This document shows positions 10,242 through 61,706 of a DNA stretch of 64,000 nucleotides, piece by piece (the stretch's first letter is position 1; every line of letters starts with the position of its first letter). This stretch comes from a virus. A program made the position numbers and the translations under genes. The stretch is from the IMG/VR virus record IMGVR_UViG_3300034062_008235, positions 1-64,000 of that record; one strand, given 5' to 3'. Under the pieces are notes generated by a model. The model was given only the letters and a program-made list of their open reading frames with translations. It was not told where the DNA came from and did not search any database.

Positions 10242-10622
10242 TCATGGGTTGCCACCTAAAGCAACATTTACTAACTGAGAAGCATTAGCTGGAGGATTTG
10301 TCTTAGTCAAATCTTGCATCGCTAATTGAAAATTTGGATCTTTGCGCAAAGTATCAATTGCATCTTTTGTCTTACCAGTTTGATATAACCTTAAAGCAGC
10401 TGAATTCTTTTGAGCAGCTGCATCAAGCTTCTTTCTAACAACAGGATTAATTTGCATTTGTTTACCTGCCTGATTAGGTGCTGATGACTGATTAGGTGCT
10501 GATGACTGATTACCAGCAGTAGGTGCCGCAGGAGCTGTAGGAGCTGTAGGAGCTGTACCAGTAGTTGGAGTGGTTCCTGTTTGTTCTTCTAGATTATTTA
10601 GAAATTTTTTAAATGATAACAT
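10242..10622 (-). CDS. putative capsid-targeted internal protein with T/A/P/Q low-complexity tract
   Basis: Start MLSFKKFLNNLEE preceded by TAAATA-N5; PTA repeats and an 18-bp NQSSAP duplication. Confidence 0.6.
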   Translation of the reverse strand: MLSFKKFLNNLEEQTGTTPTTGTAPTAPTAPAAPTAGNQSSAPNQSSAPNQAGKQMQINPVVRKKLDAAAQKNSAALRLYQTGKTKDAIDTLRKDPNFQLAMQDLTKTNPPANASQLVNVALGGNP

Positions 10623-10759
10623 GTCTATATTTATTGAGGAGGACTCAAAAATGAAAACATTTATCACATTGGTAGTAGCTTTTGTTTTAGGTTTTTTAGT
10701 TGGCGTAACTTCAACAATCATTGGACAATTTCATTACTGCCCATTTGTTAAAGCAAAAC

Positions 10760-12130
10760 TCATCCATAAGCATGAATAATTTTATTAATAATATTAGTTG
10801 TTGATAGACCTTCAACTAAAGGAATGAATTCAATTCTATCAACAACATTGGCTCCAGCAATGTTTTTGCCTCGCCAATCCTCACCTTTGACCAAAACATT
10901 CGGCTTAATTGCCTCAATTACACTTTGAGGAAACTCTTCTTCCAAAACAACAATAAAATCAACACATTCTATTGCTTTCAACATTTCAATCCTTTGACCC
11001 AAAGGAATTATTGGTCTTTTTTCACCCTTCAATTTAGCTATACTTTCATCTGAATTAATGCCAACGCATAGCTTGTCACCAAAAGATTTTGCCTGTTTTA
11101 AAGATGATATATGACCGAAATGTGTAAGATCCATGCAACCATTAGTCCAAACTAAATTAAAATCCCTATTCCTCAACACGGCTGGATTAGTAATCAATTT
11201 GTCTTTAACAAAAAAATCTGATGGATTCAAAGGTTTATTATAACGATTAGCAACATATTTTGTTCCAGCTTCAAATGCAATAGCTATTGCTTCTTGCAAA
11301 TCAATTCCTGCGCTTAAAGCCATAGCCAAAAATGCTATATAAGCATCTCCAGCACCAGTCAGGTTTTCCGGTTTTATAGATTTTTTATCAGGAATTACAT
11401 AATATATTTTTTCATTATGATCAATTGCGCTTACACCCTCTCCTGCATTTGTAATCACAACATTATCACATCCCAGCAAAGCTTGAAGCCATTTTAACTG
11501 ATCTTCAACTTTTTCTTTATTAACAAATCTTTTTGCCTCAACAGAATTTGGCTTAAATAAATAACATCCTTCCCAAATATTAAGATTTTTCTTAGGATCA
11601 ACAAGTGATTTACTTTGCTTTAAATAATTCTTATGCCAATTTGTAGAAAATAAACCTTTATCATAATCAGAAAATATGTTAATGTCTGAATCAGGAATTT
11701 TTATGTCACTTAGATATCTTGATATATCAAATAAACCAAAATTAGGCTGTTCAATGTCCCACCTAGTTAATGGATGAAAGTCCTTATAAAATCTTTTTTT
11801 TATTGGATTTTTAACATCTTTTGAAACAATAGAATACTTTGTATCAATGCCATTTAGTTCACATATGTCTTGCGTTTCTGGACTAATAAGCGAAATCAAG
11901 TTTGTCTTAATGTTAAAATTACGGAATTGCATAACAACATTTGCGGCACCACCACACAATACTTTATGCGGTTTGTCTGTAACAGAACAATGAATGGGAA
12001 TGGGAAACTCTGGACTAATACGATCAACTTCTACTTGGTAATACTCATCAATTAAAACATCTCCAATAATATTTATTGTAATGTTTGATTTGTTTAATTT
12101 GTCAAAAAAACTTGAAAAAAAATTGCCCAT
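10760..12130 (-). CDS. hldE: bifunctional heptose-7-P kinase / heptose-1-P adenylyltransferase
   Basis: IGDVLIDEY..RISPEFPIP, GGAANV, SDYDKG, TGAGD; C-terminal TNGCMDLTHFGH, GINSD, KGEKRP, LVKGED and STTNII. Confidence 0.93.
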   Translation of the reverse strand: MGNFFSSFFDKLNKSNITINIIGDVLIDEYYQVEVDRISPEFPIPIHCSVTDKPHKVLCGGAANVVMQFRNFNIKTNLISLISPETQDICELNGIDTKYSIVSKDVKNPIKKRFYKDFHPLTRWDIEQPNFGLFDISRYLSDIKIPDSDINIFSDYDKGLFSTNWHKNYLKQSKSLVDPKKNLNIWEGCYLFKPNSVEAKRFVNKEKVEDQLKWLQALLGCDNVVITNAGEGVSAIDHNEKIYYVIPDKKSIKPENLTGAGDAYIAFLAMALSAGIDLQEAIAIAFEAGTKYVANRYNKPLNPSDFFVKDKLITNPAVLRNRDFNLVWTNGCMDLTHFGHISSLKQAKSFGDKLCVGINSDESIAKLKGEKRPIIPLGQRIEMLKAIECVDFIVVLEEEFPQSVIEAIKPNVLVKGEDWRGKNIAGANVVDRIEFIPLVEGLSTTNIINKIIHAYG

Positions 12131-12163
12131 GAAATAAATAGAGTTATAACAGAAGGTAGAAAA

Positions 12164-13489
12164 ATGCTTAATTCATTAGACAAAAAAATATTTGACAAAA
12201 AATTTGTTGAATTTTTAGTTGAGAAAAATATCCATCCTTCACATTTGCTAAAACTAGCACATCAGATTAATTCTGAAACATTACTAAACGAAGAAGGAAT
12301 GACAGGTTTTTTGGGTGGTATTGGAGGAGGACTGACAGGTCTTTACCAAGGATTCAAAGCTGGTTGGGGTACAAAAGATATAAATGCAGCAGAAGACAGA
12401 TTAAAAGATCAATTAGATTTTGCATACAGAACATTTTCGAATAGTATTGAAAAAGCTACAGGAAACCCAGCAACAGCACGATTGGTTTTAGACAGACTGA
12501 GAACTGGCAGTGATGTTTTTACAGACGCTGCTATTGACAAACCAAGTCTTATATCAGGCAGATCACCAACATCACCATCTGGTGGCAGCGGCACCGATTG
12601 GCTAAATAATCTTTTAGGAGGAGGGGGAGGAGGTAGCAGTCCCAGAAGAAGAAGAACAAGAACAACTGCCCCAATAGATCCTCTTGACAGCGATACTCCA
12701 GTGGCAATAGCCGAACCACCATCAGCATCACCAGTTGCGCCATCACCATCACCAACTACACCATCACCATCACCATCACCATCACCATCACCATCACCAT
12801 CACCATCACCATCACCATCAATTGGTGGATTGACTCCAACGCCAACATCAACACCAACTACCACACCGACTCCTACGCCAACTGCTCCCCCAAAAATGGG
12901 ACCAGAGAAAGAAAAAACTTTAGAAAACCTTATCGAAAAAGATTTTTTAGAAAATTTCAACAATTTTGTTGAAAATATTTTTTATAAAATTGAAAATGAT
13001 GGAGATTTTGTTAAAAGAAAATTCCCATTTAAGACTTTAAGTGTCATAAAAAGACTTTATCAATATAAGTCACTTCCACTCAAAATGTCATATTTTGATC
13101 TTCACAGAAAAAACATGAGAATCATAGGTGCAAAAAACTGGAAAGAAATGATGAAGGAGATTATAAAAACATTTGAATCTAATAAATGTGATTTTGGCAA
13201 TGAAGAGTTTGTTAAAGATATTGGAACCATTTTTAATGACACTTACAATGCAGGTGGATATTATGAGAGGTTAATAACTGATTTAACTAGATATAATGAT
13301 AATTGGAAAAATTTAATAAAGGCTTTGAAAGAAATAGGAAAATATATTGATGATTTTTGCGAAAAAAATCCAAACAAATGTTCTGACAAAGGCGGAAAAT
13401 ATGGTGAAAAACTTTTAAATAATCTAGAAGAAAATAAAAACATCACTTTTGCAAATTGGTTATTAATTCAAGAAAATATACTATTTTAA
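12164..13489 (+). CDS. hypothetical protein with Gly-rich segment and Pro/Ser/Thr repeat linker
   Basis: GFLGGIGGGLTG segment, PS and PT repeats, KFVEFLVE near the N-terminus; TAAATA upstream. Confidence 0.65.
   Translation: MLNSLDKKIFDKKFVEFLVEKNIHPSHLLKLAHQINSETLLNEEGMTGFLGGIGGGLTGLYQGFKAGWGTKDINAAEDRLKDQLDFAYRTFSNSIEKATGNPATARLVLDRLRTGSDVFTDAAIDKPSLISGRSPTSPSGGSGTDWLNNLLGGGGGGSSPRRRRTRTTAPIDPLDSDTPVAIAEPPSASPVAPSPSPTTPSPSPSPSPSPSPSPSPSPSIGGLTPTPTSTPTTTPTPTPTAPPKMGPEKEKTLENLIEKDFLENFNNFVENIFYKIENDGDFVKRKFPFKTLSVIKRLYQYKSLPLKMSYFDLHRKNMRIIGAKNWKEMMKEIIKTFESNKCDFGNEEFVKDIGTIFNDTYNAGGYYERLITDLTRYNDNWKNLIKALKEIGKYIDDFCEKNPNKCSDKGGKYGEKLLNNLEENKNITFANWLLIQENILF
12761..12820 (+). repeat. (CCATCA)10 coding microsatellite (Pro-Ser)
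   Basis: Perfect 6-bp tandem repeat. Confidence 0.95.
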
Positions 13490-13516
13490 TAGTAAGTACA
13501 GTCACTTGGAGAAAAA

Positions 13517-14266: not shown

Positions 14267-14267
14267 C

Positions 14268-17464: not shown

Positions 17465-18031
17465 TTAATCTGGTCTAATAACTCCTCTTTGTGGAATTGG
17501 TATATTTGGATTAAGTGGTCGAATTCTTTTTTCAGATTGTTGATACATATTATGAGTTGCTGCTATGCTATCTTCAATTTCTTGTAATGCTTTTTGAATA
17601 CTGTCAGAAATTTCTTGACCTTGTTTAGTTTGTTTCAAAGAAGGACTATTTTTAATAGCATTAGAATAATCAACAAGAGCAGTCTGTAGCTCTAAGTACT
17701 TTCTTTTAATGTCTTTCTGATCATCAGCATTCTGACCAAATATCGCTTTCCCAAGTCCTGTAGTAGTATCCATAGCTCCTTTGCTAATAGCATCCATAGC
17801 TCCTATGGCAGCACCTTTGAATCCTTCTCCATCCTTAACTCTTTTTTCAATAGCATCCTTAACTCCTACGATAGTGTTTCTAGTTCCTTGTCCTACAGCT
17901 TTACCAGCATCACGCATTTTATTGTTAACACCTGATCCGTCAAGAAATCCATCAATGAATGGATTTATTACGCCTTGTTCCTGAACAAGAGATATTTTTT
18001 TATTTTTTAAAAAATTATAAAATGTTTTCAC
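17465..18031 (-). CDS. putative capsid-targeted internal protein (paralog of the 18063 gene)
   Basis: GTG start MKTFYNFLK after GGAG; Gly/Ala-rich amphipathic middle. Confidence 0.65.
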   Translation of the reverse strand: MKTFYNFLKNKKISLVQEQGVINPFIDGFLDGSGVNNKMRDAGKAVGQGTRNTIVGVKDAIEKRVKDGEGFKGAAIGAMDAISKGAMDTTTGLGKAIFGQNADDQKDIKRKYLELQTALVDYSNAIKNSPSLKQTKQGQEISDSIQKALQEIEDSIAATHNMYQQSEKRIRPLNPNIPIPQRGVIRPD

Positions 18032-18062: not shown

Positions 18063-18833
18063 TCATCTCGTGTTTTGCCGAATAGCGTTTCCAAGCTCTT
18101 TCAAATCGTCATTAATGCCGTTAACAAGATCATTAACCTGCTGATTCCTCGCATAAACAGGATTACTTCTTAAGATATTAGCATAATTATTAAGAGTGGC
18201 TTGAATCTGTCGATGATTTCTAGTAATAGCTTGTCCATATCGAGCTTGTTGTTGTCCTTGTTGTTGTCCTTGTTGTTGTCCTTGTTGTTGTCCTTGTTGT
18301 TGTCCTTGTTGTTGTCCTTGTTGTTGTCCTTGTTGTTGTCCTTGTTGTTGTCCTTGTTGTTGTCCTTGTTGTCGTCCTTGTTGTCGTCCTTGTCGTCGTT
18401 GTCGTCCTTGTTGTTGTCCTTGTTGTTGTCCTTGTTGTTGTCCTTGTTGTTGTCCTTGTTGTTGTCCTTGTTGTTGTCCTTGTTGTTGTCCTTGTTGTTG
18501 TCCTTGTTGTTGTCCTTGTTGTTGTCCTTGTTGTTGTGGTTGGCTAGAGCCGAATGCAGCGTTATAAAGACCTTTTCCCATATTATAGACACCTTTTCCT
18601 AAATAATTGGCACCTTGTCCTACTTTATTACCAACGTATCTAGCAGCATCAGTTGCGCCTGTTGCATCAAGAGCACTGCCAATAGCCTGACCACCAAGAT
18701 ATGAACCCGCTGCTCCTAAAGCAGCACCTGCATAAGGTGCCGCTGCCATGGCAGCGGGTGCAAGTAATGGAAAAACTTCATTAAGGGCGTTCTCTTCATC
18801 TCTTTTTTCAACATATTCTGCAAAAGTTCTCAT
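18063..18833 (-). CDS. putative capsid-targeted internal protein with QQQG repeats
   Basis: Start MRTFAEYVE after GGAG; Ala/Gly hydrophobic segment; about 24 QQQG units. Confidence 0.7.
   Translation of the reverse strand: MRTFAEYVEKRDEENALNEVFPLLAPAAMAAAPYAGAALGAAGSYLGGQAIGSALDATGATDAARYVGNKVGQGANYLGKGVYNMGKGLYNAAFGSSQPQQQGQQQGQQQGQQQGQQQGQQQGQQQGQQQGQQQGQQQGQQQGRQRRQGRQQGRQQGQQQGQQQGQQQGQQQGQQQGQQQGQQQGQQQGQQQGQQQARYGQAITRNHRQIQATLNNYANILRSNPVYARNQQVNDLVNGINDDLKELGNAIRQNTR
18246..18537 (-). repeat. 12-bp coding tandem repeat (CAACAACAAGGA), about 24 units
   Basis: Near-perfect array with a central patch of CAA-to-CGA variants. Confidence 0.95.
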
Positions 18834-18895: not shown

Positions 18896-19105
18896 TCATG
18901 ATTTTCTATGTTTCCTTTTTGGATTGACGTAATCTGTGCTAGTTAATTGTTGAATTGGTCCGCCTAATCCATATTGTCCCACATTAAAAAATTGTGGAAA
19001 TTTTCTACCTATCATCCCAGCACCAATTGGCAAAGCAAAATTAGCTACATCCCCTGTGCTAGTGGAAACTTCATCTATTTTCAACCAATATTTGAAGCCT
19101 TTCAT
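18896..19105 (-). CDS. small protein with CTS-like N-terminus
   Basis: MKGFKYWLKIDE; ATGA overlap with the upstream gene. Confidence 0.6.
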   Translation of the reverse strand: MKGFKYWLKIDEVSTSTGDVANFALPIGAGMIGRKFPQFFNVGQYGLGGPIQQLTSTDYVNPKRKHRKS

Positions 19106-19467
19106 TTTGCTTTACCCTTCAAAAAATCATTATATTTTTCTGCACCAACAAGACCTTGAGTCTTTAAATAATCTACAAAAGTTGGTGTTACGACAGTTTT
19201 TATGTTTAATTTACTTGGTACATGATCTGTATAAGTTAAATCACCAAAAACGCTTCGATTTTTCATTGCATAATTTTTACCGATTTTCTTAACATCAAAA
19301 GCAGAAGCACCGATTTGCTTATCTCCATAAAGTGCTTGAGCAAAAACAGAAGGTGTTTTTTCTATAGCATTGTCTAAATTTTTTGGATCAATATTGAAAA
19401 GTTTCAAACTTGTCATAAAGTCTGAATTTTTTCTTTCTTCATTGATATATTGGATAAATGTTTTCAC
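19102..19467 (-). CDS. small protein with CTS-like N-terminus
   Basis: MKTFIQYINE; TATATA-N5-GTG start. Confidence 0.65.
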   Translation of the reverse strand: MKTFIQYINEERKNSDFMTSLKLFNIDPKNLDNAIEKTPSVFAQALYGDKQIGASAFDVKKIGKNYAMKNRSVFGDLTYTDHVPSKLNIKTVVTPTFVDYLKTQGLVGAEKYNDFLKGKAK

Positions 19468-19485
19468 ACAAATATATACTAATAC

Positions 19486-20106
19486 ATGAACAAAAAAAAT
19501 ACAGGTAGAAATTATTGTTGCTTTGCTTGTGATAAAAGTTTTGATGAACTTGATTTACTCAGGTCTCACATTACAACAGATCACAAAGAAGGAGACGATT
19601 ATGTTATTTGTCCTATTTGTACTAGTCCCACAAGGGATTTGATCACACATTACCGATCAAGACATATCGGAGAGACAATACCGCAAGGATCACAAACAAG
19701 GGCATTAATCATCCGTGATATAAAAAAAAAAGGTATATCCAATAAACTAACAACTAAATTTAAACAAGGTAATTTTTATTCTGAGAAAAATAAATGTAAT
19801 ATTTTTTTTAGAAGTGGCTTAGAATTAAAGTTTATTAAACATTTAGAAAAAAATCCAAAAGTAAAAAAATATAAAGCAGAAAGCTTACAAATAGAATATT
19901 TTTTCAATGGTGGTAACCACAATTATATTCCAGATATACTGATTGAATATACTGATGGCAAAATAGAATTATGGGAAATAAAGCCAAAGTCACAAGTAAA
20001 ATGGGACAAAAACATTGCTAAATGGAAAGCAGCAAATATTTACTGCAAAAAAAGAAACTGGGAATTCATTGTAATGACCGAAAATGCTTTGAAAACTTTA
20101 AAATGA
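19486..20106 (+). CDS. C2H2 zinc fingers fused to TnsA-like / T4 gp4-like head-completion nuclease
   Basis: CFAC..F..L..H....H and CPIC..H....H fingers; FRSGLE, YIPD, EIKP, KWKAA and EFIVMTE. Confidence 0.8.
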   Translation: MNKKNTGRNYCCFACDKSFDELDLLRSHITTDHKEGDDYVICPICTSPTRDLITHYRSRHIGETIPQGSQTRALIIRDIKKKGISNKLTTKFKQGNFYSEKNKCNIFFRSGLELKFIKHLEKNPKVKKYKAESLQIEYFFNGGNHNYIPDILIEYTDGKIELWEIKPKSQVKWDKNIAKWKAANIYCKKRNWEFIVMTENALKTLK

Positions 20107-20131
20107 ATCATAAATACAATAGGTGATAAAA
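20098..20131 (+). repeat. 34-bp direct repeat, copy 1 (promoter-like box plus RBS)
   Basis: TTAAAATGAATCATAAATACAATAGGTGATAAAA, identical to 21088-21121. Confidence 0.9.
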
Positions 20132-21091
20132 ATGGAAAATTTTGTTGAATGGTTAAAAATAAAGCATCCACGATATTTTACAGAACAACAAAATGAACAA
20201 GATAATCTGGGATATAGACCTGATGAAATAATAATTCAAAAAAATGTAATACCAAAACAACTGATAAGAAATGCGCAATTTGATACCAATAAATGGGATA
20301 AAGATTTTAATAGATTACAAGACCCTAGTGAAAACCAAAATTCAGGATTTGCAACAATAAAATATTATTTTGACGAACCAGTAAGAATGCTTGTTGTGAA
20401 AAAAGAAGCATTAAAAAGAGTACGACCCAGTGCTGAAGCATATTATATGTCGCTCCAGCACACTGTCGTTTTACCAAATACCATGTTTACTGAACTTCCT
20501 ACTGCTTCATCAGATGGAAAGTTAACACCAGAAGGAGCAGAAGTATTAGCTCACGAATTACGACACTCAACACAACAAGGATTTGTACCAAAGGTAAGAC
20601 AACAAGACTCTAGTTTATCGGGAAAAAAACGTGAAAAAAAATACCATAAAGATCCCAGAGAAATGGGAGTAAGATTAGCTGCAATAAAAAATTACATGAG
20701 CAAAGACGCATTATATGAAATAGCCAATTTATCTACCAAAAACAAATATTATGCAAATAAAATTGTTGAAACTTTACCAGAAGATGAAAAACTAATATTT
20801 TATTTTATTTTGCATCCACAGGAATGGGAACGTCGATCTTTAAAGATAATCAATTCAGAAACAAACAATCCAGATAATCACAAGCTAATTAATTTGATTT
20901 TAAGATCTGTTTTATATGAGATTATAACTAATTTAAGCAAAAGCAATGGTGATGTTAGTGAAATATTAAGTTTTTACAACACTTTGAATGGAGCAGAGAA
21001 GGAAGACTATTATAAAGAACTGATTGGTGCTTATGATCAAGTTGTAAAAAACAACCCACAAAACAATCAATCTGCATTTCAAAAAACTTAA
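20132..21091 (+). CDS. putative zincin metallopeptidase-like protein with CTS-like N-terminus
   Basis: MENFVEWLK; VLAHELRH (HExxH) with downstream YHKDPRE. Confidence 0.65.
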   Translation: MENFVEWLKIKHPRYFTEQQNEQDNLGYRPDEIIIQKNVIPKQLIRNAQFDTNKWDKDFNRLQDPSENQNSGFATIKYYFDEPVRMLVVKKEALKRVRPSAEAYYMSLQHTVVLPNTMFTELPTASSDGKLTPEGAEVLAHELRHSTQQGFVPKVRQQDSSLSGKKREKKYHKDPREMGVRLAAIKNYMSKDALYEIANLSTKNKYYANKIVETLPEDEKLIFYFILHPQEWERRSLKIINSETNNPDNHKLINLILRSVLYEIITNLSKSNGDVSEILSFYNTLNGAEKEDYYKELIGAYDQVVKNNPQNNQSAFQKT

Positions 21092-21121
21092 AATGAATCA
21101 TAAATACAATAGGTGATAAAA
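21088..21121 (+). repeat. 34-bp direct repeat, copy 2
   Basis: Identical to 20098-20131, 990 bp downstream. Confidence 0.9.
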
Positions 21122-21558
21122 TGAAAACATTCCGCAATTGGTTATCTAAAAGGTTTTCTGAGCAAACATATGGTGTTCAACCTCCTAATCCGCAGAGAGG
21201 TTATAATCAATCAGGCAACAATGCTAATGTTGATATTCAAGATCGAGATATACAAAGATTTTCAATAGAAGAATTAGCAAACAAATTCTCTGCGGATAAA
21301 AATAAATTAGATTTAGTTTTAAAGAAAAAAATAGAATTGTCGGGCGGATTGGACAATTTGTTCAGAAAAAATGTATACAACATTTATAAAATAGCAAGCC
21401 TACAAGCTGATGGGCACATATCAAGCTACATAACGCCACAAAAAGCAACAGAATTACTAAAAAGAGAAGATTTAGATAGACACACAAAAAAATACTTAAC
21501 AGTAATCGAACAAAAAGATGCTGTTAAAAATGCGTTGAACAACAGATATAGATTGTAA
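21121..21558 (+). CDS. protein with CTS-like N-terminus
   Basis: MKTFRNWLSKRFSE followed by a Q/N/P-rich tract. Confidence 0.65.
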   Translation: MKTFRNWLSKRFSEQTYGVQPPNPQRGYNQSGNNANVDIQDRDIQRFSIEELANKFSADKNKLDLVLKKKIELSGGLDNLFRKNVYNIYKIASLQADGHISSYITPQKATELLKREDLDRHTKKYLTVIEQKDAVKNALNNRYRL

Positions 21559-36204: not shown

Positions 36205-37007
36205 GTTTTAAATATATTTTCAATAATTGTTGTAATCTCATTTTTATTCTGATCTACGCTAAAATATTCGTCCCATTCAGGGGTCTGAGGTTCATAATTA
36301 TAGAGCAAGTGAGGAGCAGAATATTCGGCACCCCAACATCGAATTAACCCTTTGTGTTTGATAAATTCTACATAAATATTAAATTGATTCACTTTTCTTT
36401 GACCGGGAGCTTCAAGACCTAAACCATGATACGAAAAATATATGATATATGTATTAATGTTTTCTTTTATCACACCTTGGTAACTCATTACTTTTGGATG
36501 CTTTAATTTCATATTCATAGCAAGCATAATTACTAATTCTTCAAGCGAATCATATTTTTGTTTGGGCGTTTCCAAAGCCGTTTTATCAATATATTCAGCC
36601 AATTCAAAAATCCTAGTAGCTAACATTTTTTCAACAGCAATGTCTTCTACAGTCATATGTTCGTAATCATTAACAACAGGAATAGAATAACGAGTAACCC
36701 AAGTTAATTCACCTTCCAAATCACTAATTCTTCTCATTATCGTTACACGACAAGAACCAAGAGGACTAAATTTAAGACGAATTGACCCGACTTGATTACT
36801 GTCTCCATAATTAATCATAGATCCAAAATCTTTAACAGGTTCTTTTATTCCTATTTTACCTAAATTGATTATTTCATCTAAAACAGTTTCGATTTTTAAA
36901 GGTTCTACTGGTTCTTCGTTATAACGAAGCTGACCTTTAGTAGAAACAACTTTGTCAAAACCGAAAACAACATCAGGTGATTTACCAACCCATTCAGTAA
37001 ACTTCAT
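36198..37007 (-). CDS. hypothetical protein with CTS-like N-terminus
   Basis: MKFTEWV; GGAG SD. Confidence 0.65.
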   Translation of the reverse strand: MKFTEWVGKSPDVVFGFDKVVSTKGQLRYNEEPVEPLKIETVLDEIINLGKIGIKEPVKDFGSMINYGDSNQVGSIRLKFSPLGSCRVTIMRRISDLEGELTWVTRYSIPVVNDYEHMTVEDIAVEKMLATRIFELAEYIDKTALETPKQKYDSLEELVIMLAMNMKLKHPKVMSYQGVIKENINTYIIYFSYHGLGLEAPGQRKVNQFNIYVEFIKHKGLIRCWGAEYSAPHLLYNYEPQTPEWDEYFSVDQNKNEITTIIENIFKTY

Positions 37008-37036
37008 AAAAATTCTCCATAAATCTATATAGTCAT

Positions 37037-37354
37037 ATGATTACTTTCATACAATTTTTAGAAGCTACAGAAAATGAAAAAGAAGTTAAAAAAAATGCTT
37101 TTAAAAATCAATTACAATTAAATATTGATAATGATCAAGGATTTACTATCAACCTATCCAAGCTTGATATTGAAAAGATAAAGACTCGATTGAAAAGTTG
37201 GAGTAAATATGATCAAATGAGCAAGGAAGACAAGGCAATGATAAAAAGTATTATTGGTAAACCATCATCTACGTTAAATGATTTATTTAATGCTTTTTAC
37301 AATGTTGTCAATCGAAAAACTGAAGAGAGTGACCTTCCTTCTCCAAAATTCTAA
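37037..37354 (+). CDS. small protein with CTS-like N-terminus
   Basis: MITFIQFLEATE; TATATA-N5-ATG. Confidence 0.65.
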   Translation: MITFIQFLEATENEKEVKKNAFKNQLQLNIDNDQGFTINLSKLDIEKIKTRLKSWSKYDQMSKEDKAMIKSIIGKPSSTLNDLFNAFYNVVNRKTEESDLPSPKF

Positions 37355-38841: not shown

Positions 38842-39006
38842 ATGATTGATAGCATGATTGATGAAACATTATTCGTTGTTAAAAATCTTGATAAAAATCT
38901 TAAAGAAGTTGCTGAAAAACAAAAAAAATTAGATGAAAAAATGGATTTTTTAGAATTTAATAAAACTAAAATAAGAAAAAAATTATTTCCTCTTGCGGAC
39001 ATTTAA
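38842..39006 (+). CDS. small coiled-coil hypothetical protein
   Basis: MIDSMIDE start after GGAG. Confidence 0.45.
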   Translation: MIDSMIDETLFVVKNLDKNLKEVAEKQKKLDEKMDFLEFNKTKIRKKLFPLADI

Positions 39007-39462
39007 GTAAAATAAATAACTATTTTTTTCTCCCGGTTTTAGGCTTTTAGCATTTTGTCTATAATCTAAAACTAATTTTGTTTCTGGATTTTCATAAATC
39101 ACAAAATCTTTCAATCTAGACAGTACAGTTGTAATAAATTCTTTGCTTCCTGTGAGCCTAAATGTATCTTGTTGTAAAGTACTACCTTTATGAATTTGCT
39201 CAATAGGCTGCAATTGTAAAGGTATATTAGGAGCTAAAGCTTTCCAAAAAGTCATAATTTGACTTTTCTTCGCTTTCCAAGGTTTTACTTTTGATCTGAA
39301 TCCGGTTTCTGCTGGCTGCGGAACAGCTACAGTGTGATTTACAGGGTCTGCATTCGCATTAATTGCAACTGGCGCAACTGCTTGCGGTTGTGGAACAGGA
39401 CGCTCAGTTATTCGTAGAGCATCCGGTTGATCATTATTTAAATATTCCCAAAATGTTTTCAT
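38983..39462 (-). CDS. protein with CTS-like N-terminus and P/A/V-rich tract
   Basis: MKTFWEYLN...ITE. Confidence 0.65.
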   Translation of the reverse strand: MKTFWEYLNNDQPDALRITERPVPQPQAVAPVAINANADPVNHTVAVPQPAETGFRSKVKPWKAKKSQIMTFWKALAPNIPLQLQPIEQIHKGSTLQQDTFRLTGSKEFITTVLSRLKDFVIYENPETKLVLDYRQNAKSLKPGEKNSYLFYLNVRKRK

Positions 39463-39480
39463 CGTACATATATATTTTGT

Positions 39481-39855
39481 ATGATCACAATTCATCAATT
39501 TAGAAGAAAAAAATTTTTAACTGAAGCAGATGCTCCAGCTGGTGGAGCATCCTCTAGTGGAGGTGCGGCACCACCGGGAGGAGCTTTAGGAGGAGCAACA
39601 CCACCACCCGGAGGAGCACCACCATCTGACTTAGGTGGTCTAGGTGGTAGCCTTGGCGGGTCATTAGGTGGAGCAACTCCTCCCCCACCTTCAAGTTTGG
39701 GTGCAGATCTTGGTGGTGGAATTGGTGTTGGAGCAACAGGTGGTGCTCCAACAGCCGTCATTACAGACATTAACAAACTAAATGCTTGGGATCTTCTCGA
39801 AAAATATTTTGAAGGCAAAATTAAGCGAAAAGATAAGCTTGAACCTTACACATAA
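39481..39855 (+). CDS. Gly/Pro/Ala low-complexity protein with CTS-like N-terminus
   Basis: MITIHQFRRKKFLTE then GGA/PPP repeats. Confidence 0.6.
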   Translation: MITIHQFRRKKFLTEADAPAGGASSSGGAAPPGGALGGATPPPGGAPPSDLGGLGGSLGGSLGGATPPPPSSLGADLGGGIGVGATGGAPTAVITDINKLNAWDLLEKYFEGKIKRKDKLEPYT

Positions 39856-45652: not shown

Positions 45653-46135
45653 ATGACAGACTTTAATTTTAGAGAATTCGTTTTAAACGAAAACAAAGTT
45701 TACTTAGCCAAAGAAATTGGTGATGTCCTTAATTCTTCACAAGAACTTTCGGACGAAGTAAATAAAATTGGTACAAGAAACTTAGTTCGTTATGCACAAA
45801 TTATTGTAAACAAATCTAGAGGCATTCTTCAAGGTCACTGGGGCAATGAAAATAGAAAATTTCTTAAAGGATTACAAAAATGTGCTGTTTCTCTCGCAAA
45901 GTCTATAGATGAAAATGATAATATAGAAGAAGTCTTAAAAAGTACAATTGACACTTTGCAGAAAGTCGTTAATAAAATGGGAGTTCCTATTAACGCTTTC
46001 CAAATTACAGAAAAACCAAAAGAAATGGAAACTCCTAAAGATGTATCAGGTCAGGATATAGCACCAGATAATCCTCCAGCAAGTGGTTTTGATACCTCTG
46101 CTGCTGCTCCTACAGCACAATATCCACAAAAATAA
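45653..46135 (+). CDS. protein with CTS-like N-terminus
   Basis: MTDFNFREFVLNE; TAAATA-N5-ATG. Confidence 0.65.
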   Translation: MTDFNFREFVLNENKVYLAKEIGDVLNSSQELSDEVNKIGTRNLVRYAQIIVNKSRGILQGHWGNENRKFLKGLQKCAVSLAKSIDENDNIEEVLKSTIDTLQKVVNKMGVPINAFQITEKPKEMETPKDVSGQDIAPDNPPASGFDTSAAAPTAQYPQK

Positions 46136-55140: not shown

Positions 55141-55722
55141 CTAAGGCATCATATATGATGATGCTAAATTTATTAATCTCCTGCTGCATGGTTCCCAATA
55201 TGCTCTATCATATCTGATATCCATTACCACTCTCATAGGCTGATCAGATGTCATATCAGTGCCACCAAAGTCAACAGAAGATGGATATGCATTTACATAA
55301 TTCCATGCCTCTAAAGCAAAACCGCAACCATCTAACATAAATATTTGTATGTCTCTTTTAAAATTGTTAGCGATGGCACCAAAATAACTCGCACCCGTTT
55401 GACCTCTAAAAGCATTTCTTTGTACCGAGTAAATCGAATTAATCCAATTCAAAGCAGGATTAGTTGCAGCTACATCATACAATGTTACTTGAATAGGCTT
55501 CCACTCAGGCTTAGCAGCATAAAACACAGTTTCCATTAAATGTGGGACATCAAATTCTTTAAAAGACACACTAGGTCTAGCAGCTTTTTCTTCTATTAAA
55601 ACTTTATTGTAAACACGGGTTGAACTATTTCCAACATGCGTGACATTAGGAATATGTAACACAAAACGGTTTTGCTTCTTAAATGTAGTATAAGAAGCAA
55701 AACCTACACCCATCTTAGGCAT
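55141..55722 (-). CDS. tail tube protein paralog (gp19-like)
   Basis: KQNRF, RPSVSF, WKPIQVTLYD, W...AYPSSVDFG and IRYD motifs. Confidence 0.8.
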   Translation of the reverse strand: MPKMGVGFASYTTFKKQNRFVLHIPNVTHVGNSSTRVYNKVLIEEKAARPSVSFKEFDVPHLMETVFYAAKPEWKPIQVTLYDVAATNPALNWINSIYSVQRNAFRGQTGASYFGAIANNFKRDIQIFMLDGCGFALEAWNYVNAYPSSVDFGGTDMTSDQPMRVVMDIRYDRAYWEPCSRRLINLASSYMMP

Positions 55723-55737
55723 AATCGATTTTATCCT

Positions 55738-56397
55738 TTATAAATTAGCACCCAAACCAGTACCGCAAACAGGAGTGTTGCACAATTCAGGAGCAGCTGT
55801 TGCACAATTGTTTTCATACTTAGCATATGAATATCTAAGAGTCATAACAATATTACATTCAGCAGATTCACTATAATCAAGGTCACCAAAGTCGATACTC
55901 TTGGGCCAACAGTTTACTAAAGTCCACGTTTCTAAAACATAGCCACAACCATCAAGAAGAATAAGCTTGCCTGTTCCACCATAGCCAAAACCAGCACCAG
56001 TTGGATCTGTAGCGTAGCTTCTTTGAGTTGCAGATATTTCTGTCGAATTAGCAACGCCGTTCGCTGGAGCAGCAAAGTTATAAACTCTATTGACCCATCT
56101 TAAAAGATTTGAAATAGTTGGATCACCGGGAACAGCAACATCATAGTAAGTGAATTCTAGTTCACTAAATGTTGCTTTTCCGGGAAGCCAAGTCTTACCA
56201 TTTAGAAAATTGATTTCAGCACTATCATCGATTTCTATTGATGGTCTTTTTGCTGATTTTACATATTTACCAGAAACACCAAAACTGTTAGGACCACCAC
56301 CACCGATATTTTCAACAGAAAACACCCAACGGTATTTTCGTTTAAAAGCTACGTTGTTTAGCGCCCCAATGCCCATATTATTGATTGTATTAGCCAT
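55738..56397 (-). CDS. tail tube protein (gp19-like)
   Basis: KRKYRW, RPSI, LPGK, WTLVNCWPKSIDFGDLDY and LRY; follows the sheath gene. Confidence 0.88.
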   Translation of the reverse strand: MANTINNMGIGALNNVAFKRKYRWVFSVENIGGGGPNSFGVSGKYVKSAKRPSIEIDDSAEINFLNGKTWLPGKATFSELEFTYYDVAVPGDPTISNLLRWVNRVYNFAAPANGVANSTEISATQRSYATDPTGAGFGYGGTGKLILLDGCGYVLETWTLVNCWPKSIDFGDLDYSESAECNIVMTLRYSYAKYENNCATAAPELCNTPVCGTGLGANL

Positions 56398-56421
56398 TAA
56401 TCCTCCCTTGTTTTTCTTTAA

Positions 56422-58809
56422 TTATGCTAATGTTCTTACTAAATTAAATTCGATAAATATGAATTCGATAGCATAGACTGGCACAATACCTATTCTTGCT
56501 CTTAATTCATTTCTTGCGATTACATCTGATGTATTTAATTCATCATCACATTTAACTACGAAATCTTGTGCCCCAGAATTTGCTACAAGCCTAGTAAGTA
56601 TTTGAGAACAAGCGTTTATAAATGCAGACCTAGTTGCAGCATTATTTGGTTCAAACAAATAATTCTTTGAAATGCTCTTGATGCTTTTTTCAACATAGAA
56701 CAACATTCTGCGGACATTGATTCTATCAAGAGCGGTTGGCGTTCTTTGAAGAGTCTTTTGTCCCCAAATTACAAATCCACCAACATCAGGATAACTAATA
56801 ATTGGATTGATAGCGTTGTTATTGCCATACATTAAGTCACGTTCAGCTAATGAAGGTCTGCTGAACACATTATTGATATTTGGAACAACACCTCTAGTTA
56901 ATCCAGCAGGAGCATACCAAGGACCAGAGATTGAATCGCTTTGACAAATTGCTGCTAGAACAGAGCCAGATGGTGGCACCCAAACACTGATATTATTGAA
57001 AGTATCAGTTATGTCCACCCAAGGGTAATACAAAGCAGCGAAATCAGTATCAAGTCTGGTATTGTTCAAAGGATGAACACCATTTTGCCAATTAACGATT
57101 TCATTAACTGTAAGACCAAATGGAGGGTCAATAATTGCAAGAGCGTCTTGACGATAAGATTCACAAATATCAATTAGTACTCTTACAACTGCTGTTGAGC
57201 TTCTTCCCGGTGTTGCTATCAAGTCGATATCAACTTGTTCTGGTTCAGAGAAAGAATAAAGACCAGTGCCTGCGGTTGGATTACCGATGATTAAATCATC
57301 TTGTGTGTCAGGATCAACTGGAATGCCATCAGTACCACCAGTTAATAATAAACCAGTTGTAGACGTATTAGCAGGAGGTGCAGTAACAGCAGTGTTATCT
57401 GAAACTCTGATAAAGTTACTAACTGTATTAAGATAAGACTCAACGTAGAAAGAAGAAAGTTGGTTCTTGGTTAGATTTCCCCAAGATTCAACTTGTTGTC
57501 CATTATTGTAGACCTGCATCTGGAATGTGCCATCATAAGGATTAGTTGTAATAATTACTCTTGTCTGATTGCCTTCAATACCGGGACTATCAGCGAAAAT
57601 AGTAAAACTCTTTGATCCACTGCTGTTTGCACCACCAGTTACTTTGCCAGCTTGTGCAGTTAAACCACTTCCAGTAGCTTTTACAGGAGAATCACCAGTA
57701 GCAGTAATATTGCTTATGCCAAAAATGCTATCCATTGAGCTTTCTGATTTAACAAGTATTTTACTACCTGAACCATAAGCTAAAGTTGTAAGAACAATAT
57801 GATCAGAACCATCATCGGAAGCTACAAAGCCACCAGTAAGAGAATCAATCTGGGTGTTGATTTCATCAACAACTTCGGCTGTTGTATAAGGACCATTGTT
57901 TAGAACTGATAGATCGATAATTTGAACAACATCATCGATATTAACATTTCCTGTTCCTGTTACAACTACTTGCAAAGCGTTAGCCAAATCAGTTGGATCT
58001 AATGTATCAAAATCCCAGCTGCCAGCAGAACCTGAAGATGGATAACGATTTGTAGAGCCAGTTAATTCTGCTTGGGTCATGCTAGTGCCAAGACCAACAA
58101 TACTGTTTATTCCACCGTATATCGAATTCTGGTGGGAGACTAATTCAATAGAAGCTCCTACGCCGTAAGCCCAAGTAGACTTAACTCCTAAAGTTTCGCT
58201 TGTTGTTGCTACAAATTGAATTCCATCAATCGATGGATTAAGCTGAGAGTTTAGATAATCCACAAGTTCTTCAAGTGTATAATCTGTTGGATAATCTGGA
58301 TTTGTTGTTGGATCATTCTTAGGAACAATAAGAATTTTGCTTGCAAGAATATTATTTAGTTTCCAACTAAAATAACCATCTTCGACAAACTCAAAAGTTC
58401 CTCCAGCAACTGGTGTGATACTAGGAGTTCCAGTGCTTGAACCGATAATATCAACAAGTCCACCAGTAGATGGAACTAAAACTGAAGCAGAATTTGCTTG
58501 AGTATTACTAGTTGGATCTGTGTCCGCTACTCTGGTAATTACAACCTCACTCGAAACCCTAAGAACTTGCTGTGCAGCATAGATCAAATAAGGATCACTT
58601 GTGTCAGGATGTGGATTACCAAATTTGGTAACAAGATCAGTCAAAGTTCTTACACTTGTTGGTGTGTTGATCGGACCCTTGCTAGCAAACCCAATTAAAC
58701 CGACCTTATGAAAGCTTGTGGTTGGGCTAACAAAAGTGAAGTCGTTTTCTGTGATTCTCACAGAAGGGCTAATTGTGTTGCTTGCAGGAAAGCCTCGTAA
58801 AGTTGCCAT
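56422..58809 (-). CDS. contractile tail sheath protein (gp18-like)
   Basis: SPSVRITE, ASKGP, YYPW, PPSG, WYAPAG..RG, WGQKT, RINVRR and FEPN motifs. Confidence 0.95.
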   Translation of the reverse strand: MATLRGFPASNTISPSVRITENDFTFVSPTTSFHKVGLIGFASKGPINTPTSVRTLTDLVTKFGNPHPDTSDPYLIYAAQQVLRVSSEVVITRVADTDPTSNTQANSASVLVPSTGGLVDIIGSSTGTPSITPVAGGTFEFVEDGYFSWKLNNILASKILIVPKNDPTTNPDYPTDYTLEELVDYLNSQLNPSIDGIQFVATTSETLGVKSTWAYGVGASIELVSHQNSIYGGINSIVGLGTSMTQAELTGSTNRYPSSGSAGSWDFDTLDPTDLANALQVVVTGTGNVNIDDVVQIIDLSVLNNGPYTTAEVVDEINTQIDSLTGGFVASDDGSDHIVLTTLAYGSGSKILVKSESSMDSIFGISNITATGDSPVKATGSGLTAQAGKVTGGANSSGSKSFTIFADSPGIEGNQTRVIITTNPYDGTFQMQVYNNGQQVESWGNLTKNQLSSFYVESYLNTVSNFIRVSDNTAVTAPPANTSTTGLLLTGGTDGIPVDPDTQDDLIIGNPTAGTGLYSFSEPEQVDIDLIATPGRSSTAVVRVLIDICESYRQDALAIIDPPFGLTVNEIVNWQNGVHPLNNTRLDTDFAALYYPWVDITDTFNNISVWVPPSGSVLAAICQSDSISGPWYAPAGLTRGVVPNINNVFSRPSLAERDLMYGNNNAINPIISYPDVGGFVIWGQKTLQRTPTALDRINVRRMLFYVEKSIKSISKNYLFEPNNAATRSAFINACSQILTRLVANSGAQDFVVKCDDELNTSDVIARNELRARIGIVPVYAIEFIFIEFNLVRTLA

Positions 58810-58810
58810 T

Positions 58811-59038
58811 TTACTTTTCTCCCTCAGTCAAAATATTATTTGGTACATATCTAGTCTTGATAAGACCCATTTTTTCTACTCTTTCTATATATGCAGTAGA
58901 CCTTTCATCTTCTAAATTATAAATATTTTTTTTACATCCGATACCCGGAATATTTAAAGTTGTAAAAGAATTTATTTTTTTCTTGCTCTTTATAACAAGT
59001 TGAACTGGATGCTTGCAAATGTTTGTTATTTCTATCAT
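58811..59038 (-). CDS. small hypothetical protein
   Basis: Coupled between the gp15-like and sheath genes. Confidence 0.6.
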   Translation of the reverse strand: MIEITNICKHPVQLVIKSKKKINSFTTLNIPGIGCKKNIYNLEDERSTAYIERVEKMGLIKTRYVPNNILTEGEK

Positions 59039-60033
59039 AATCGTGGTGCCATTTCCTCAATTTTAGCTATTACTTTGGTAATTTTATCTTCATCTACAGA
59101 ATTTACCAAATCTGTTTTTACAACTTTGATCAAAGAATCATATATTTTTGCTGGCATAGGAACGAATGTTTCTGCTGTTAAGCCAAATTGGAACTTTATT
59201 ACTCTTTGAGCCGCATCGCCCGGTTCAGTATTAAGGTTACTAGCAATAGAATCCAATTTAACAATCACTTCCTGCAAAACTCCTCTTACTTTTATGTACG
59301 CTACTAAACTGAATTTTGTAACTATTTGTTCAAATATTTGATTCATATCTTCTAATTGCATTGTCCAAACATACATTGTATAAGAAATATTAATAGGTAT
59401 CCCTCTGCCAATCCCAAACAATGTAGACCTGTTCGAAAATTTTTCTGATTTATCAGGCTCTCTGCCTGTATAAGCATCCACATAACTCATTGCTTGATGA
59501 TAAGTATATCTCTTAGTATCAAATTCATAACCAGTTGAGCTAATTGCCATCATGGGCAATATAATTCTGTCAACAACAAGTGTTTCATCTTTGCGAACAT
59601 TTTTTTGCAGAATTGCAGCAACAGCTCTTTCTTGTGTTGCCCAAATTATTGGAACTTGAACTGCTTTTCCATCTTCATCAATTACAACAATATTTCTAAA
59701 AAGATCCATGACACCTTCGTCGGTGCCTCTTAATGCCTTTGAATATCGATAAATTGTATTTTCGTTTAACTGACTAGCTGGCTCATTAACTATTTTTCCG
59801 GCTTGCATTGGATCACAGTTATTGGCTGATCCATTGCCAAGATTGTTGATAAAATTATCTTGTAACCAGTCAGAAGCACCATTATTATTAACATTATTTT
59901 GATTATCAGGTTCCATGTGGCAATTCATGCCCGGAGGTGGATCAATATTATTGGAAATATTTAATAAACTTGAATCTGGACAAGGATTAATTTGTTTTTC
60001 TTGGTGATTCATATTTTGCGCTGTGTTTGGCAT
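59035..60033 (-). CDS. gp15-like tail terminator / sheath stabilizer
   Basis: VPIIW, LPMMAI, PINISY and DMNQIFEQI; lies upstream of the sheath gene. Confidence 0.75.
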   Translation of the reverse strand: MPNTAQNMNHQEKQINPCPDSSLLNISNNIDPPPGMNCHMEPDNQNNVNNNGASDWLQDNFINNLGNGSANNCDPMQAGKIVNEPASQLNENTIYRYSKALRGTDEGVMDLFRNIVVIDEDGKAVQVPIIWATQERAVAAILQKNVRKDETLVVDRIILPMMAISSTGYEFDTKRYTYHQAMSYVDAYTGREPDKSEKFSNRSTLFGIGRGIPINISYTMYVWTMQLEDMNQIFEQIVTKFSLVAYIKVRGVLQEVIVKLDSIASNLNTEPGDAAQRVIKFQFGLTAETFVPMPAKIYDSLIKVVKTDLVNSVDEDKITKVIAKIEEMAPRL

Positions 60034-60078
60034 AGAATTATTTAGTCTTATTTGTTTTAATTTTCACTGTAATAAGTT

Positions 60079-60915
60079 ATGGAAAATAAAACCAAAGTTA
60101 TGTATCGCACTTACGGGACTAGTATTGCTCCTCGTAAAATCAAGATTGAAATCCCCGGTTTTGCTGGGGAAACAAACGATCATACCAATGGAAGTAAAGC
60201 TCAACCATTTCATTGCTTGCCATTTATAGATGGAAGTACCTATGGTCTAGAATTAGTATATCACTTCAACACAACAACAATTGTTAAAAATGTAAAAGGA
60301 AAATTAATATTTGAAGGTGATTGGTCTAAAGAAAAATTAAATGTAAAATATTCAACCATTCCACCTTTTGGTACATTTGCTGAAGGACATTACGGCTTTA
60401 CGTCAAGTCTTGACATCATGCCTCCACCGGGACATATCGTCAGAATAGAACCACATCCAAGTTTTTATACAGACCCAACTTGGCAAACACCATGCGCTGT
60501 TCCCGGTCATATCCAAGGGGAATTTTGGAGTAGTATTTTCTTTGTAGTATTTAAAGCACCTCTTGAAGGTCAACAGCAAATTTTTCAAAAAGGAAAACCT
60601 TATGCACAAATTTTCATTTTACCCAAAAAAGTAAATTATGAAATTGACGAAATGCCTGCTGAAATTAAAAAATCAAGAGAAAAAAGGAATGATATTATAT
60701 TCAACAATAGAAGAAAAGTTGCTAAACATGTGTGGAAAGATAGTTTGAATCAAGAGTTTGATGACAAATATAAGCAATTAAAAACTATTTTTGAGAAAAA
60801 AGGAATTGCAGGTGTTGATGAATTTCTAGAAAAACTTGTAGCTTGCCCCGTGGTTAAAGGCAAGCTACGATATAAATTGGTAAATTATAATAAATTAAAT
60901 AAACGCAAACCTTAG
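60079..60915 (+). CDS. hypothetical protein (DUF6065-like, beta-rich)
   Basis: HCLPF..G..YG and KGKPYAQIF pattern. Confidence 0.5.
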   Translation: MENKTKVMYRTYGTSIAPRKIKIEIPGFAGETNDHTNGSKAQPFHCLPFIDGSTYGLELVYHFNTTTIVKNVKGKLIFEGDWSKEKLNVKYSTIPPFGTFAEGHYGFTSSLDIMPPPGHIVRIEPHPSFYTDPTWQTPCAVPGHIQGEFWSSIFFVVFKAPLEGQQQIFQKGKPYAQIFILPKKVNYEIDEMPAEIKKSREKRNDIIFNNRRKVAKHVWKDSLNQEFDDKYKQLKTIFEKKGIAGVDEFLEKLVACPVVKGKLRYKLVNYNKLNKRKP

Positions 60916-61706
60916 TAGCCGCCTCCCATGCCACTACCTCCCATGCCACCACCCTGACCGCTGCCGCCCATGCCGCCGCCCATGCCACCGCCACCCATGC
61001 CGCCGCCAAAGCCACCACCCATGTCTCCACCGCTCTGATTACCGCCGCCTTGGTCCCCACTCATGTTTTCCATGCCTCCCATAGGTGGACCACCCATTTC
61101 TCCTGCATTTGACGATTTTTCTTTACCTTTATTTCCTTCTCCCTTTTCATCTTCCTCTTCTTTATCCTCATCCTCGTCTTCATTCTCATCTTCATCATTA
61201 CCCATAACGCTGTTTATCAAGTCTTCAAGTTGCTTTATCAAGTCCTCAATTTGCTGACCTTTGTCTTCATCTGCGGATTTAAAATTTTCAACTTGATCTT
61301 TAAGAGTTTGCAAACATTTTTTAATTGTTTCTTCATCTGCTCCACCTTCGCTTGGAGCAACATTTGATTCATCTGTATCGGCAGGATTAGAACCATCGCC
61401 CATTTGAGCATCAAAATTCCCCATCTGATCTTGAGGAATTTGAGAATTAGCATTAAAATTGCCACCACCCATGTTGCCGCCACCCATATTGCCGCCACCC
61501 ATGTTGCCGCCACCCATGTTGCCGCCACCCATGTTGCCGCCCATGTTACCACCGCCCATGCCTCCACCCATGTTGCCGCCCATGCCGCCGCCCATGCCGC
61601 CACCCATGTTGCCGCCCATGCCACCGCCACCCATGTTGCCTTGTTCTTGCATAATCTTATTTCTCTTCATCTTCATAATGTCGTACATTTCGAAAAAAGT
61701 CTTCAT
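60912..61706 (-). CDS. Gly/Met/Asn low-complexity protein with CTS-like N-terminus
   Basis: MKTFFEMY...IMQE; GGM/GGNM repeats flank an acidic helical hairpin. Confidence 0.7.
   Translation of the reverse strand: MKTFFEMYDIMKMKRNKIMQEQGNMGGGGMGGNMGGGMGGGMGGNMGGGMGGGNMGGNMGGGNMGGGNMGGGNMGGGNMGGGNFNANSQIPQDQMGNFDAQMGDGSNPADTDESNVAPSEGGADEETIKKCLQTLKDQVENFKSADEDKGQQIEDLIKQLEDLINSVMGNDEDENEDEDEDKEEEDEKGEGNKGKEKSSNAGEMGGPPMGGMENMSGDQGGGNQSGGDMGGGFGGGMGGGGMGGGMGGSGQGGGMGGSGMGGGY
61461..61640 (-). repeat. 12/15-bp coding repeats (GGNMG/GGM)
   Basis: CCACCCATGTTGCCG-type units; a related tract lies at 60916-61030. Confidence 0.85.

Follow-up and report, generated by a model that had tools for sequence, protein, structure and literature searches.

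The window, i.e., the whole stretch of DNA analysed here, comprises the first 64 kb of a linear IMG/VR virus contig of 91,057 bp (IMGVR_UViG_3300034062_008235, hereafter G000), which has 33% GC, is 96% coding with the standard code and has a CheckV completeness of 16%. A number of its genes encode proteins that begin with the same short tag, which the initial annotation had compared with the capsid-targeting sequence (CTS) of phage T4 internal proteins, and our analyses indicate that this shared N-terminus is likely a homologue of the T4 CTS with a greatly expanded cargo, whose packaging and cleavage we infer. Two relatives are referred to throughout: G001, a 91,466-bp contig collinear with G000 (median protein identity 68%), and G006, a complete 572,167-bp genome with terminal repeats that has 65 of the 120 G000 proteins in common, arranged in collinear blocks. 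All 12 tag starts listed earlier are present and translate as described, with GTG as the start codon of 18031 and 19467 (genes are named by the position of their start). Overlooked at that stage were 10245 (MTFKEFIKMDE) and, outside the window, 67639, 67860, 70836 and perhaps 65314. The search pattern M-x(1,2)-F-x-x-[FWY]-[LIVM] was applied to the N-termini of genes from a simple gene call, and N-termini were also scored with a weight matrix trained on relatives only, with G000 and G001 left out. In thirteen genes the core is anchored behind Met, at residue 3 or 4. The tagged genes of the window and the variants are the following, with matrix scores in bits:

10099..10245, minus strand: tagged gene, 48 residues, MTFKEFIKMDE followed by ANGH; 20.5 bits; G001 orthologue MTFKDFLQLDE.
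10242..10622, minus strand: tagged gene, 126 residues, MLSFKKFLNNLEE followed by QTG and then a T/P/A-rich low-complexity stretch; 12.2 bits; the G001 orthologue begins MLSFKKYMNQIEE.
12164..13489, plus strand: variant, 441 residues, FVEFLVE at residues 14-20, with (SP)n and Gly-rich low-complexity stretches.
17465..18031, minus strand: tagged gene, 188 residues, GTG start, MKTFYNFLKNKKISLVQE (MKTFYNFLK) followed by QG; 14.2 bits.
18063..18833, minus strand: tagged gene, 256 residues, MRTFAEYVE followed by KRDEE, with a long (QQQG)n array; 18.7 bits.
18896..19105, minus strand: tagged gene, 69 residues, MKGFKYWLKIDE followed by VST; 13.2 bits; G001 orthologue MKGFKNWLNE.
19102..19467, minus strand: tagged gene, 121 residues, GTG start, MKTFIQYINE followed by ERK; 11.3 bits; G001 orthologue MKTFIEFLKEE.
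20132..21091, plus strand: tagged gene, 319 residues, MENFVEWLKIKHPRYFTE (MENFVEWLK) followed by QQ, with an HELRH motif in the body.
21121..21558, plus strand: tagged gene, 145 residues, MKTFRNWLSKRFSE followed by QT; 20.6 bits.
36198..37007, minus strand: tagged gene, 269 residues, MKFTEWVGKSPD, acidic, the weakest of the anchored set; 14.6 bits; orthologues begin MKFNEWAGK (G001) and MIKTWNEW (G006).
37037..37354, plus strand: tagged gene, 105 residues, MITFIQFLE followed by ATE; 11.2 bits; divergent from 37007, 29 nucleotides (nt) apart.
38983..39462, minus strand: tagged gene, 159 residues, MKTFWEYLNNDQPDALRITE followed by RP, with a P/A/Q-rich linker and then a conserved domain; 9.2 bits.
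39481..39855, plus strand: variant tag, 124 residues, MITIHQFRRKKFLTE followed by ADAP and then a G/A/P-rich low-complexity stretch; divergent from 39462, 18 nt apart.
45653..46135, plus strand: tag placed two residues late, 160 residues, MTDFNFREFVLNE followed by NK; ATAAATA 5 nt upstream of the ATG.
60912..61706, minus strand: variant tag, 264 residues, MKTFFEMY...IMQE followed by QG and then (GGM)n arrays around an acidic core.

On G000, the pattern is found at the N-terminus of 13 of 115 genes, compared with 0.7 expected from the frequency of the core within proteins (P = 6.5e-13). The weight matrix selected 13 N-termini identical to the pattern set, at 7.8-20.6 bits, with about 0.7 chance hits predicted and the 99.9th percentile of internal windows at 2.9 bits. 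Shuffling of the G000 N-termini, the comparison proposed in the initial annotation, gave a mean of 0.4 pattern matches and a maximum of 3, so that the excess holds. In G001, 13 of 119 genes are tagged, and in G006 47 of 977 against 6.6 expected (P = 1.6e-24). The control was G007, a complete 428-kb huge phage with a GC content equal to that of G006, in 400 kb of which only 3 of 637 genes are tagged (3.4 expected); a search of it for the T4 protease and capsid families gave no match. The tag excess is hence present in the clade with the T4-type head and absent from the one phage compared with it, where the search for T4-type head genes gave nothing. Genomes rich in AT often have MK- starts and Phe, and non-coding frames also match the pattern, which could hint that chance or the composition of AT-rich N-termini produces the motif; however, with P of about 1e-12 against the internal rate, 0.4 hits among shuffled N-termini and no excess in the GC-matched G007, such an effect can be rejected as the explanation. 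As a general feature, tag copies at the C-terminus are not enriched (4 versus 2.2 and 32 versus 20.3 expected), although a few of them are conserved.

Besides the anchored set, five or six further genes of G000 carry variant tags shifted by 2-13 residues. The variants in 45653, 61706, 39481 and 12164 are conserved in their G001 orthologues and are therefore considered real features rather than noise. In the 39481 variant, Ile occupies position 4 and is followed by FLTE, and its G001 orthologue reads MITIHEFKHKIFLTE followed by ADAP; the 61706 variant lacks the aliphatic residue and has the orthologue MKTFYEMY...VFRE followed by QD, while the syntenic G006 orthologue of 45653 begins MLFKEFVLNE followed by DK. 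Close to the C-terminus of the 12164 protein, five residues from its end, lies another tag-like motif, ITFANWLLIQE (LTFKNWLLIKE in G001), and both motifs are kept in the G001 orthologue at an overall identity of 34%. T4 Alt is known to carry propeptides at its two ends. The 10622 start is an internal ATG of a longer open reading frame, behind a 137-nt gap in which AATAAATA lies 5 nt upstream of this ATG. Two candidates were dropped, namely 33301 (MKIFQMFK), which falls under the matrix threshold and whose orthologues lack the tag layout, and 66211, whose real start is probably 66247.

The agreement with T4 extends beyond the positions that were searched for. In the T4 record, ipII and ipIII start with MKTYQEFIAE, as the initial annotation had stated, and ipI starts with MKTFKEFTSTTTPVSTITE (MKTFKEF). 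The logo built from the 158 distinct N-termini of tagged clade proteins reads M-K-T-F-[KR]-[ED]-[WFY]-[LIV], with F (92%) or Y (8%) at position 4, W, F and Y in about equal thirds at position 7, and Glu peaking at +5 and +8 from the first aromatic residue, that is, one and four residues past the aliphatic position. Aromaticity at positions 4 and 7 is given by construction because both are part of the search pattern, into which the aliphatic residue at position 8 is also built; the independent support is provided by K2, T3, and E/D6, which are preferred as in T4 though the pattern left them free. T4 targeting is mainly set by residues 4 and 7 and processing by residues 8 and 10 (PMC9026906), and the motif-defining positions of the tag (aromatic 4 and 7, aliphatic 8) coincide with these functional residues. 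In the 19467 tag, Ile8-x-Glu10 is in the register of T4 IPII/IPIII. The CTSs of IPI, IPII, and IPIII are removed by gp21 (Mullaney & Black 1996, reviewed in PMC9026906 and PMC3012670), and the tags share with them the N-terminal position, the length of about 10-20 residues, MKT[FY], the aromatic residues 4 and 7 and the aliphatic residue 8, with a Glu that follows at a variable distance. Sec/Tat-type signal peptides, in which a basic N-region precedes a hydrophobic core of about 10 or more residues, do not have this character: the tags are amphipathic and charged (K/R5, E/D6, Glu after position 8), and polar linkers come next.

The 20132 protein was furthermore used to follow the tag through a family. 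It has homologues in 48 clusters, all of them unnamed metagenomic proteins, and the tag is retained down to 35% identity (MENFVEWLK, MSEFSRWLA, MTIFFEWLR, SFNEWLK). A conserved [FL]-x-E-Q boundary about 18 residues in closes the tag, and an indel-rich linker of roughly 0 to 190 residues separates this boundary from the conserved body. In an AlphaFold2 model (predicted local distance difference test, pLDDT, of 84), the tag is helical over residues 4-11, and the segment 18-22 after the putative site is disordered. A targeting propeptide that can be removed would be expected to show this order of tag, putative site, linker, and body, and T4 IPI likewise has a form of 19 residues. At the HELRH motif of the body there is a sub-threshold eCIS_core/DUF4157 match. 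In 6 of 26 aligned sequences HELRH is replaced by R[IVA]LRY with the neighbouring L, R, and Q invariant, which may mean a loss of metal binding in those members (homologues P0023, P0024, P0026, P0030, and P0032 are cited for the replacement). Fold searches with the 20132 model returned only weak zinc-peptidase rows from the PDB with Foldseek (E about 0.1) and only generic helical matches with VIA-align (Z <= 5.6).

The phage itself belongs in the T4 superfamily, as its contig carries a T4-like tail operon:

55141..60033, minus strand: T4-like tail operon with a gp15-like sheath stabiliser, a 75-residue gene, the sheath and two tube proteins.
56422-58809: sheath gene, a T4-like tail gene of G000.

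Other T4-like tail genes of G000 are a baseplate hub gene and a neck adaptor gene just past the window end. Close cultured phages are lacking: a near-identity DNA search with 20 kb of window sequence had no match among cultured phages, and the sheath protein is less than 40% identical to that of any isolate. Capsid, portal, protease, and terminase genes were looked for across G000 and none was found, nor did searches with PF03420 and PF07068 find anything on G000 and five sheath-linked relatives, because all of these are fragments without head genes. Locating the prohead protease had been suggested in the initial annotation; it is not on G000, whereas relatives do encode it. G006 possesses a 238-residue prohead protease (PF03420/phrog_207; E = 7.6e-27 and 8.4e-48), followed on the same strand by a 311-residue acidic protein that occupies the place of the gp22 scaffold and contains 22 hydrophobic-x-Glu sites, and by a 480-residue capsid protein (PF07068/phrog_138; E = 8.6e-85). 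Portal and large terminase genes lie nearby, and PHROGs confirm protease, capsid, portal, and terminase. No tag-like core was found in the scaffold-like protein, and the N-terminal part of the capsid protein shows several hydrophobic-x-Glu sites (FLNE, LLE, LMNE) before the conserved fold. Matches to this capsid protein occur on more than 400 IMG/VR contigs, of which the best 80 were examined and are 74-80% identical, and a gp21-family protease adjoins a gp23-type capsid gene in all five other head-module contigs tested, among them contigs of low GC and one that comes from the sample of G001. For the capsid protein of the 595-kb uncultured phage LR756511.1 in GenBank, identity to the G006 protein is 70%, compared with about 30% for cultured T4-like phages. 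Within the head module there is also a small tagged protein (MKTFVDYQKLRE, MKTFYEFMES, or MKTFQDYLQLKE). In G006 it is about 100 nt away from the gene preceding the protease, and several other contigs of the clade have it at about 3.7 kb from the capsid gene.

We also asked whether the tag might instead dock its proteins to another phage machine, such as a modifying enzyme, a chaperone, or a tail/baseplate assembly site, so that the likeness to T4 would be convergent. G000 does encode a COOH-NH2 ligase-type enzyme, some tagged genes (61706, 65314) lie among tail and neck genes, and tag-like copies also occur internally and C-terminally. On the other hand, the T4 match reaches the unconstrained K2, T3, and E6, no excess is seen in G007, the one huge phage examined in which T4-type protease and capsid were not found, the conserved hydrophobic-x-Glu boundary suits gp21-type processing, and no candidate partner enzyme stands consistently beside tagged genes. 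Docking elsewhere is, in our judgement, unlikely.

At the level of BLAST, the proteins behind the tag have little sequence in common. The initial annotation had held that no recognisable enzyme of the window carries the tag and that the tagged proteins are mostly unrelated beyond it, and both statements are borne out: ten tagged proteins scanned against Pfam and PHROGs had nothing above the cut-off, the helicase, tail, and other named genes lack the motif, and an all-against-all BLAST with the first 20 residues removed found 67639/67860 as the sole related pair. Paralogy of 18031 and 18833 was considered and rejected, the BLASTP match being not significant (E = 0.19). Tagged proteins are smaller and more basic than untagged ones (median 136 residues and isoelectric point 9.5 versus 203 residues and 6.5; P = 5e-4). 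Low complexity is pronounced in several of them: about 35 QQQG units are present in 18833, GGM arrays flank the acidic core of 61706, and tagged 70836 (L021:10836-11705) is D/E-rich with a Lys-rich tail. In G006, one tagged protein (L126:5306-6025) gives an ART-PolyVal match (E = 4.5e-7, at the Pfam threshold), and another (L131:8841-10340) has a poly(A) polymerase/CCA-adding head domain (E = 1.7e-27) after a 130-residue N-terminal extension. The former is reminiscent of the packaged T4 protein Alt. Gene turnover is high as well. A G000 homologue exists for 82% of all G001 genes but is lacking for 7 of the 15 that are tagged, and four tagged G000 genes are without a homologue in G001. For 18031 and 18833, no homologue was found in either G001 or G006, and for 39462 the G006 homologue can be aligned only from residue 66 on. 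The main tag island (17.5-21.6 kb) holds six tagged genes, and the syntenic G006 island holds five, which are unrelated to them in sequence. About one gene in eight on this fragment begins with a peptide that agrees with the T4 tag at its key residues, so that the cargo packaged by the phage is probably of unusual size and quick to change.

Such turnover might also be expected if promoter, ribosome-binding site (RBS), and first codons were nothing but the shared end of a cassette for gene swapping, i.e., a functionless recombination scar. In line with this, variability within the genome is highest among the tagged genes, the tag islands occupy syntenic places in G000 and G006 yet are filled with unrelated genes, and two adjacent tagged genes each have a copy of a 33-bp exact repeat in front of them:

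20098..20130, plus strand: 33-bp exact repeat, copy 1, CATAAATA then AGGTGA, just upstream of 20132.
21088..21120, plus strand: 33-bp promoter/RBS repeat, copy 2, just upstream of 21121.

Aside from this one pair, however, the tags are not conserved in DNA, whereas the peptide is kept to 35% identity in the 20132 family, and cassette exchange is compatible with targeting rather than an alternative to it. We therefore find a scar without function very improbable; cassette recombination is probably real and complements the targeting function. Variable internal-protein loci of T-even phages were reportedly treated by Repoila et al. in 1994. Like the T-even loci, the present ones comprise a syntenic variable island, bodies unrelated between relatives, and a repeated promoter/RBS segment flanking one gene; unlike them, there are several islands plus scattered single genes, and the lineage is very distant. 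The T-even variable loci hold CTS-like basic proteins (PMC9026906, section 3.1).

Upstream of the start codons, ATAAATA occurs within 40 nt in 4 of 13 tagged genes versus 3 of 107 others (P = 0.003), and in G006 both TAAATA and TATATA are about fourfold enriched upstream of tagged genes. Several tagged genes lack a Shine-Dalgarno sequence, and their element stops 4-6 nt short of the start codon. CTAAATA or TATATA 3-6 nt before the ATG also heads the gp15-sheath-tube operon (CTAAATA, 5 nt before the ATG of 55141..60033), the neck gene, and gene 62724. Three divergent pairs have start codons 18-29 nt apart (gaps 19468-19485, 37008-37036, and 39463-39480); these gaps are built on TATATA or ATAAAT without a Shine-Dalgarno sequence, which suggests bidirectional minimal late promoters giving leaderless or near-leaderless mRNAs. 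The proximity of TATATA/ATAAATA to the start, 4-6 nt away with no Shine-Dalgarno sequence in several tagged genes, and the three divergent pairs at 18-29 nt could further speak for a signal at the RNA level, where the first codons would aid translation initiation of leaderless or short-leader late transcripts. Against this, codons vary while the chemistry is kept (W/F/Y, i.e., TGG/TTY/TAY, at position 7 and L/I/V at position 8), the tag is found equally behind clear Shine-Dalgarno sites (18833, 20132, 21121), its register shifts by one to thirteen residues with spacing unchanged, and structural genes with the same promoter type have no tag. A role of the codons themselves thus seems hardly credible.

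Taken together, the T4 match, the head module of the clade, the G007 control, the layout of the 20132 family, and the cargo traits support the capsid-targeting-like reading put forward in the initial annotation, under which the tagged proteins would be packaged. We surmise that tagged genes would be expressed late from short T4-type late promoters, and that the amphipathic tag, with its aromatic residues at 4 and 7, would dock the proteins on the scaffolding core of the assembling prohead. The gp21-family protease of the clade could then remove the tag by cleaving behind a Glu that has a hydrophobic residue ahead of it, 9 to 20 residues from the start, and the mature proteins, mostly small and basic or of low complexity, would remain in the head with the DNA and probably be ejected into the host. 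Docking, cleavage, residence in the virion, and injection are all proposed here by analogy with T4.

Several points weigh against homology with the T4 CTS. The distance from tag to Glu varies between +1 and +12, a few members (37007 and 61706) have no obvious early Glu site, and the commonest form in G006 is W-L-E, which puts an aromatic residue at P3 instead of Leu/Ile. The tagged CCA/poly(A)-type nucleotidyltransferase is not an obvious head protein. The expression signals fit late, structural-class expression, but their association with tagged genes is only moderate. In addition, G000 is linked to a T4-type head only via its relatives, because no head gene or protease lies on the contig.

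A further-reaching proposal, which we offer tentatively, is that the huge phages of this freshwater clade pre-load dozens of proteins (5-11% of called genes) via an ancestral tag and so deliver an entire early proteome open to rapid exchange, as against the three internal proteins of T4. If so, the cargo may include the long, low-complexity Gln/Gly-, Gly/Met-, Ser/Pro-, and Asp/Glu-rich proteins, the HExxH-domain protein, and the ADP-ribosyltransferase-like protein of the relative, and an internal body or condensate could arise from the members of low complexity.

As with the internal proteins of T4, the members of the tagged cargo are otherwise unrelated, small, and basic, and the clade has a gp21/gp22/gp23-type module. 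T4 has three such proteins, whereas 13-19 are found here on 91 kb and about 40 in the 572-kb relative. The capsid protein of the clade is only about 30% identical to gp23 of cultured T4-like phages, the distance from tag to Glu is more variable than in T4, and the predicted cargo includes long low-complexity proteins and an HExxH domain. Compared with T4, the repertoire is thus larger several-fold on the 91-kb fragment and more than ten-fold in the 572-kb relative, and the mechanism is probably the same. Giant phages also occur among the phiKZ-like viruses such as SPN3US, which have a gp21-related protease and many internal head proteins processed after Glu. Their ejection-protein propeptides are mostly longer than 100 residues and show no common short consensus (PMC5694885), in contrast to the tags described here, which comprise 9-20 residues and share a T4-like consensus. 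In phage P1, an N-terminal peptide of DarB is sufficient for capsid entry (PMC9024508); there, however, a single cargo is known and a separate scaffold is absent. That diverse proteins are united only by a capsid-targeting sequence has been established for T-even phages (PMC3012670, PMC9026906), and the novelty of the present case therefore lies in lineage and scale, not in mechanism. In the library searched, we found no paper on such tags in huge uncultured phages and none quoting these sequences. Should the tag function as it does in T4, the proteins that a widespread clade of uncultured huge phages packages and injects would be predictable by a simple sequence rule, which would point to candidates for host takeover and anti-defence among its orphan proteins, and the capsid-targeting mechanism would be older than the split between T-even phages and very distant lineages of the T4 superfamily. 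The tags would also be natural variants of a signal already in use for loading foreign proteins into T4 heads.

A few observations concern the genomes themselves. The COOH-NH2 ligase-type gene is located at L021:11769-12701 (phrog_3815, E = 1.2e-50); its product is a possible protein-modifying enzyme, and no link to the tag was found for it. G000 and G001 are broken at the identical two places, one of which lies inside the gene for a 1419-residue protein where it enters an 18-bp tandem repeat; on G000, the break sites at the contig ends are window 1-700 and L022:12700-13057. Their common size of about 91 kb is thus explained by assembly breaking at repeats and does not mark a genome end. Loci around an 815-residue protein in more distant T4-like contigs span about 6 kb each, which is too short for judging tag expansion there. 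The portal gene of G006 (L128:16937-19477, 846 residues) contains an insertion that starts with CFAANT, ends with HNC, and looks like an intein. Within the window, three adjacent genes at 3992-8869 have 51-62% identity to the 572-kb relative.

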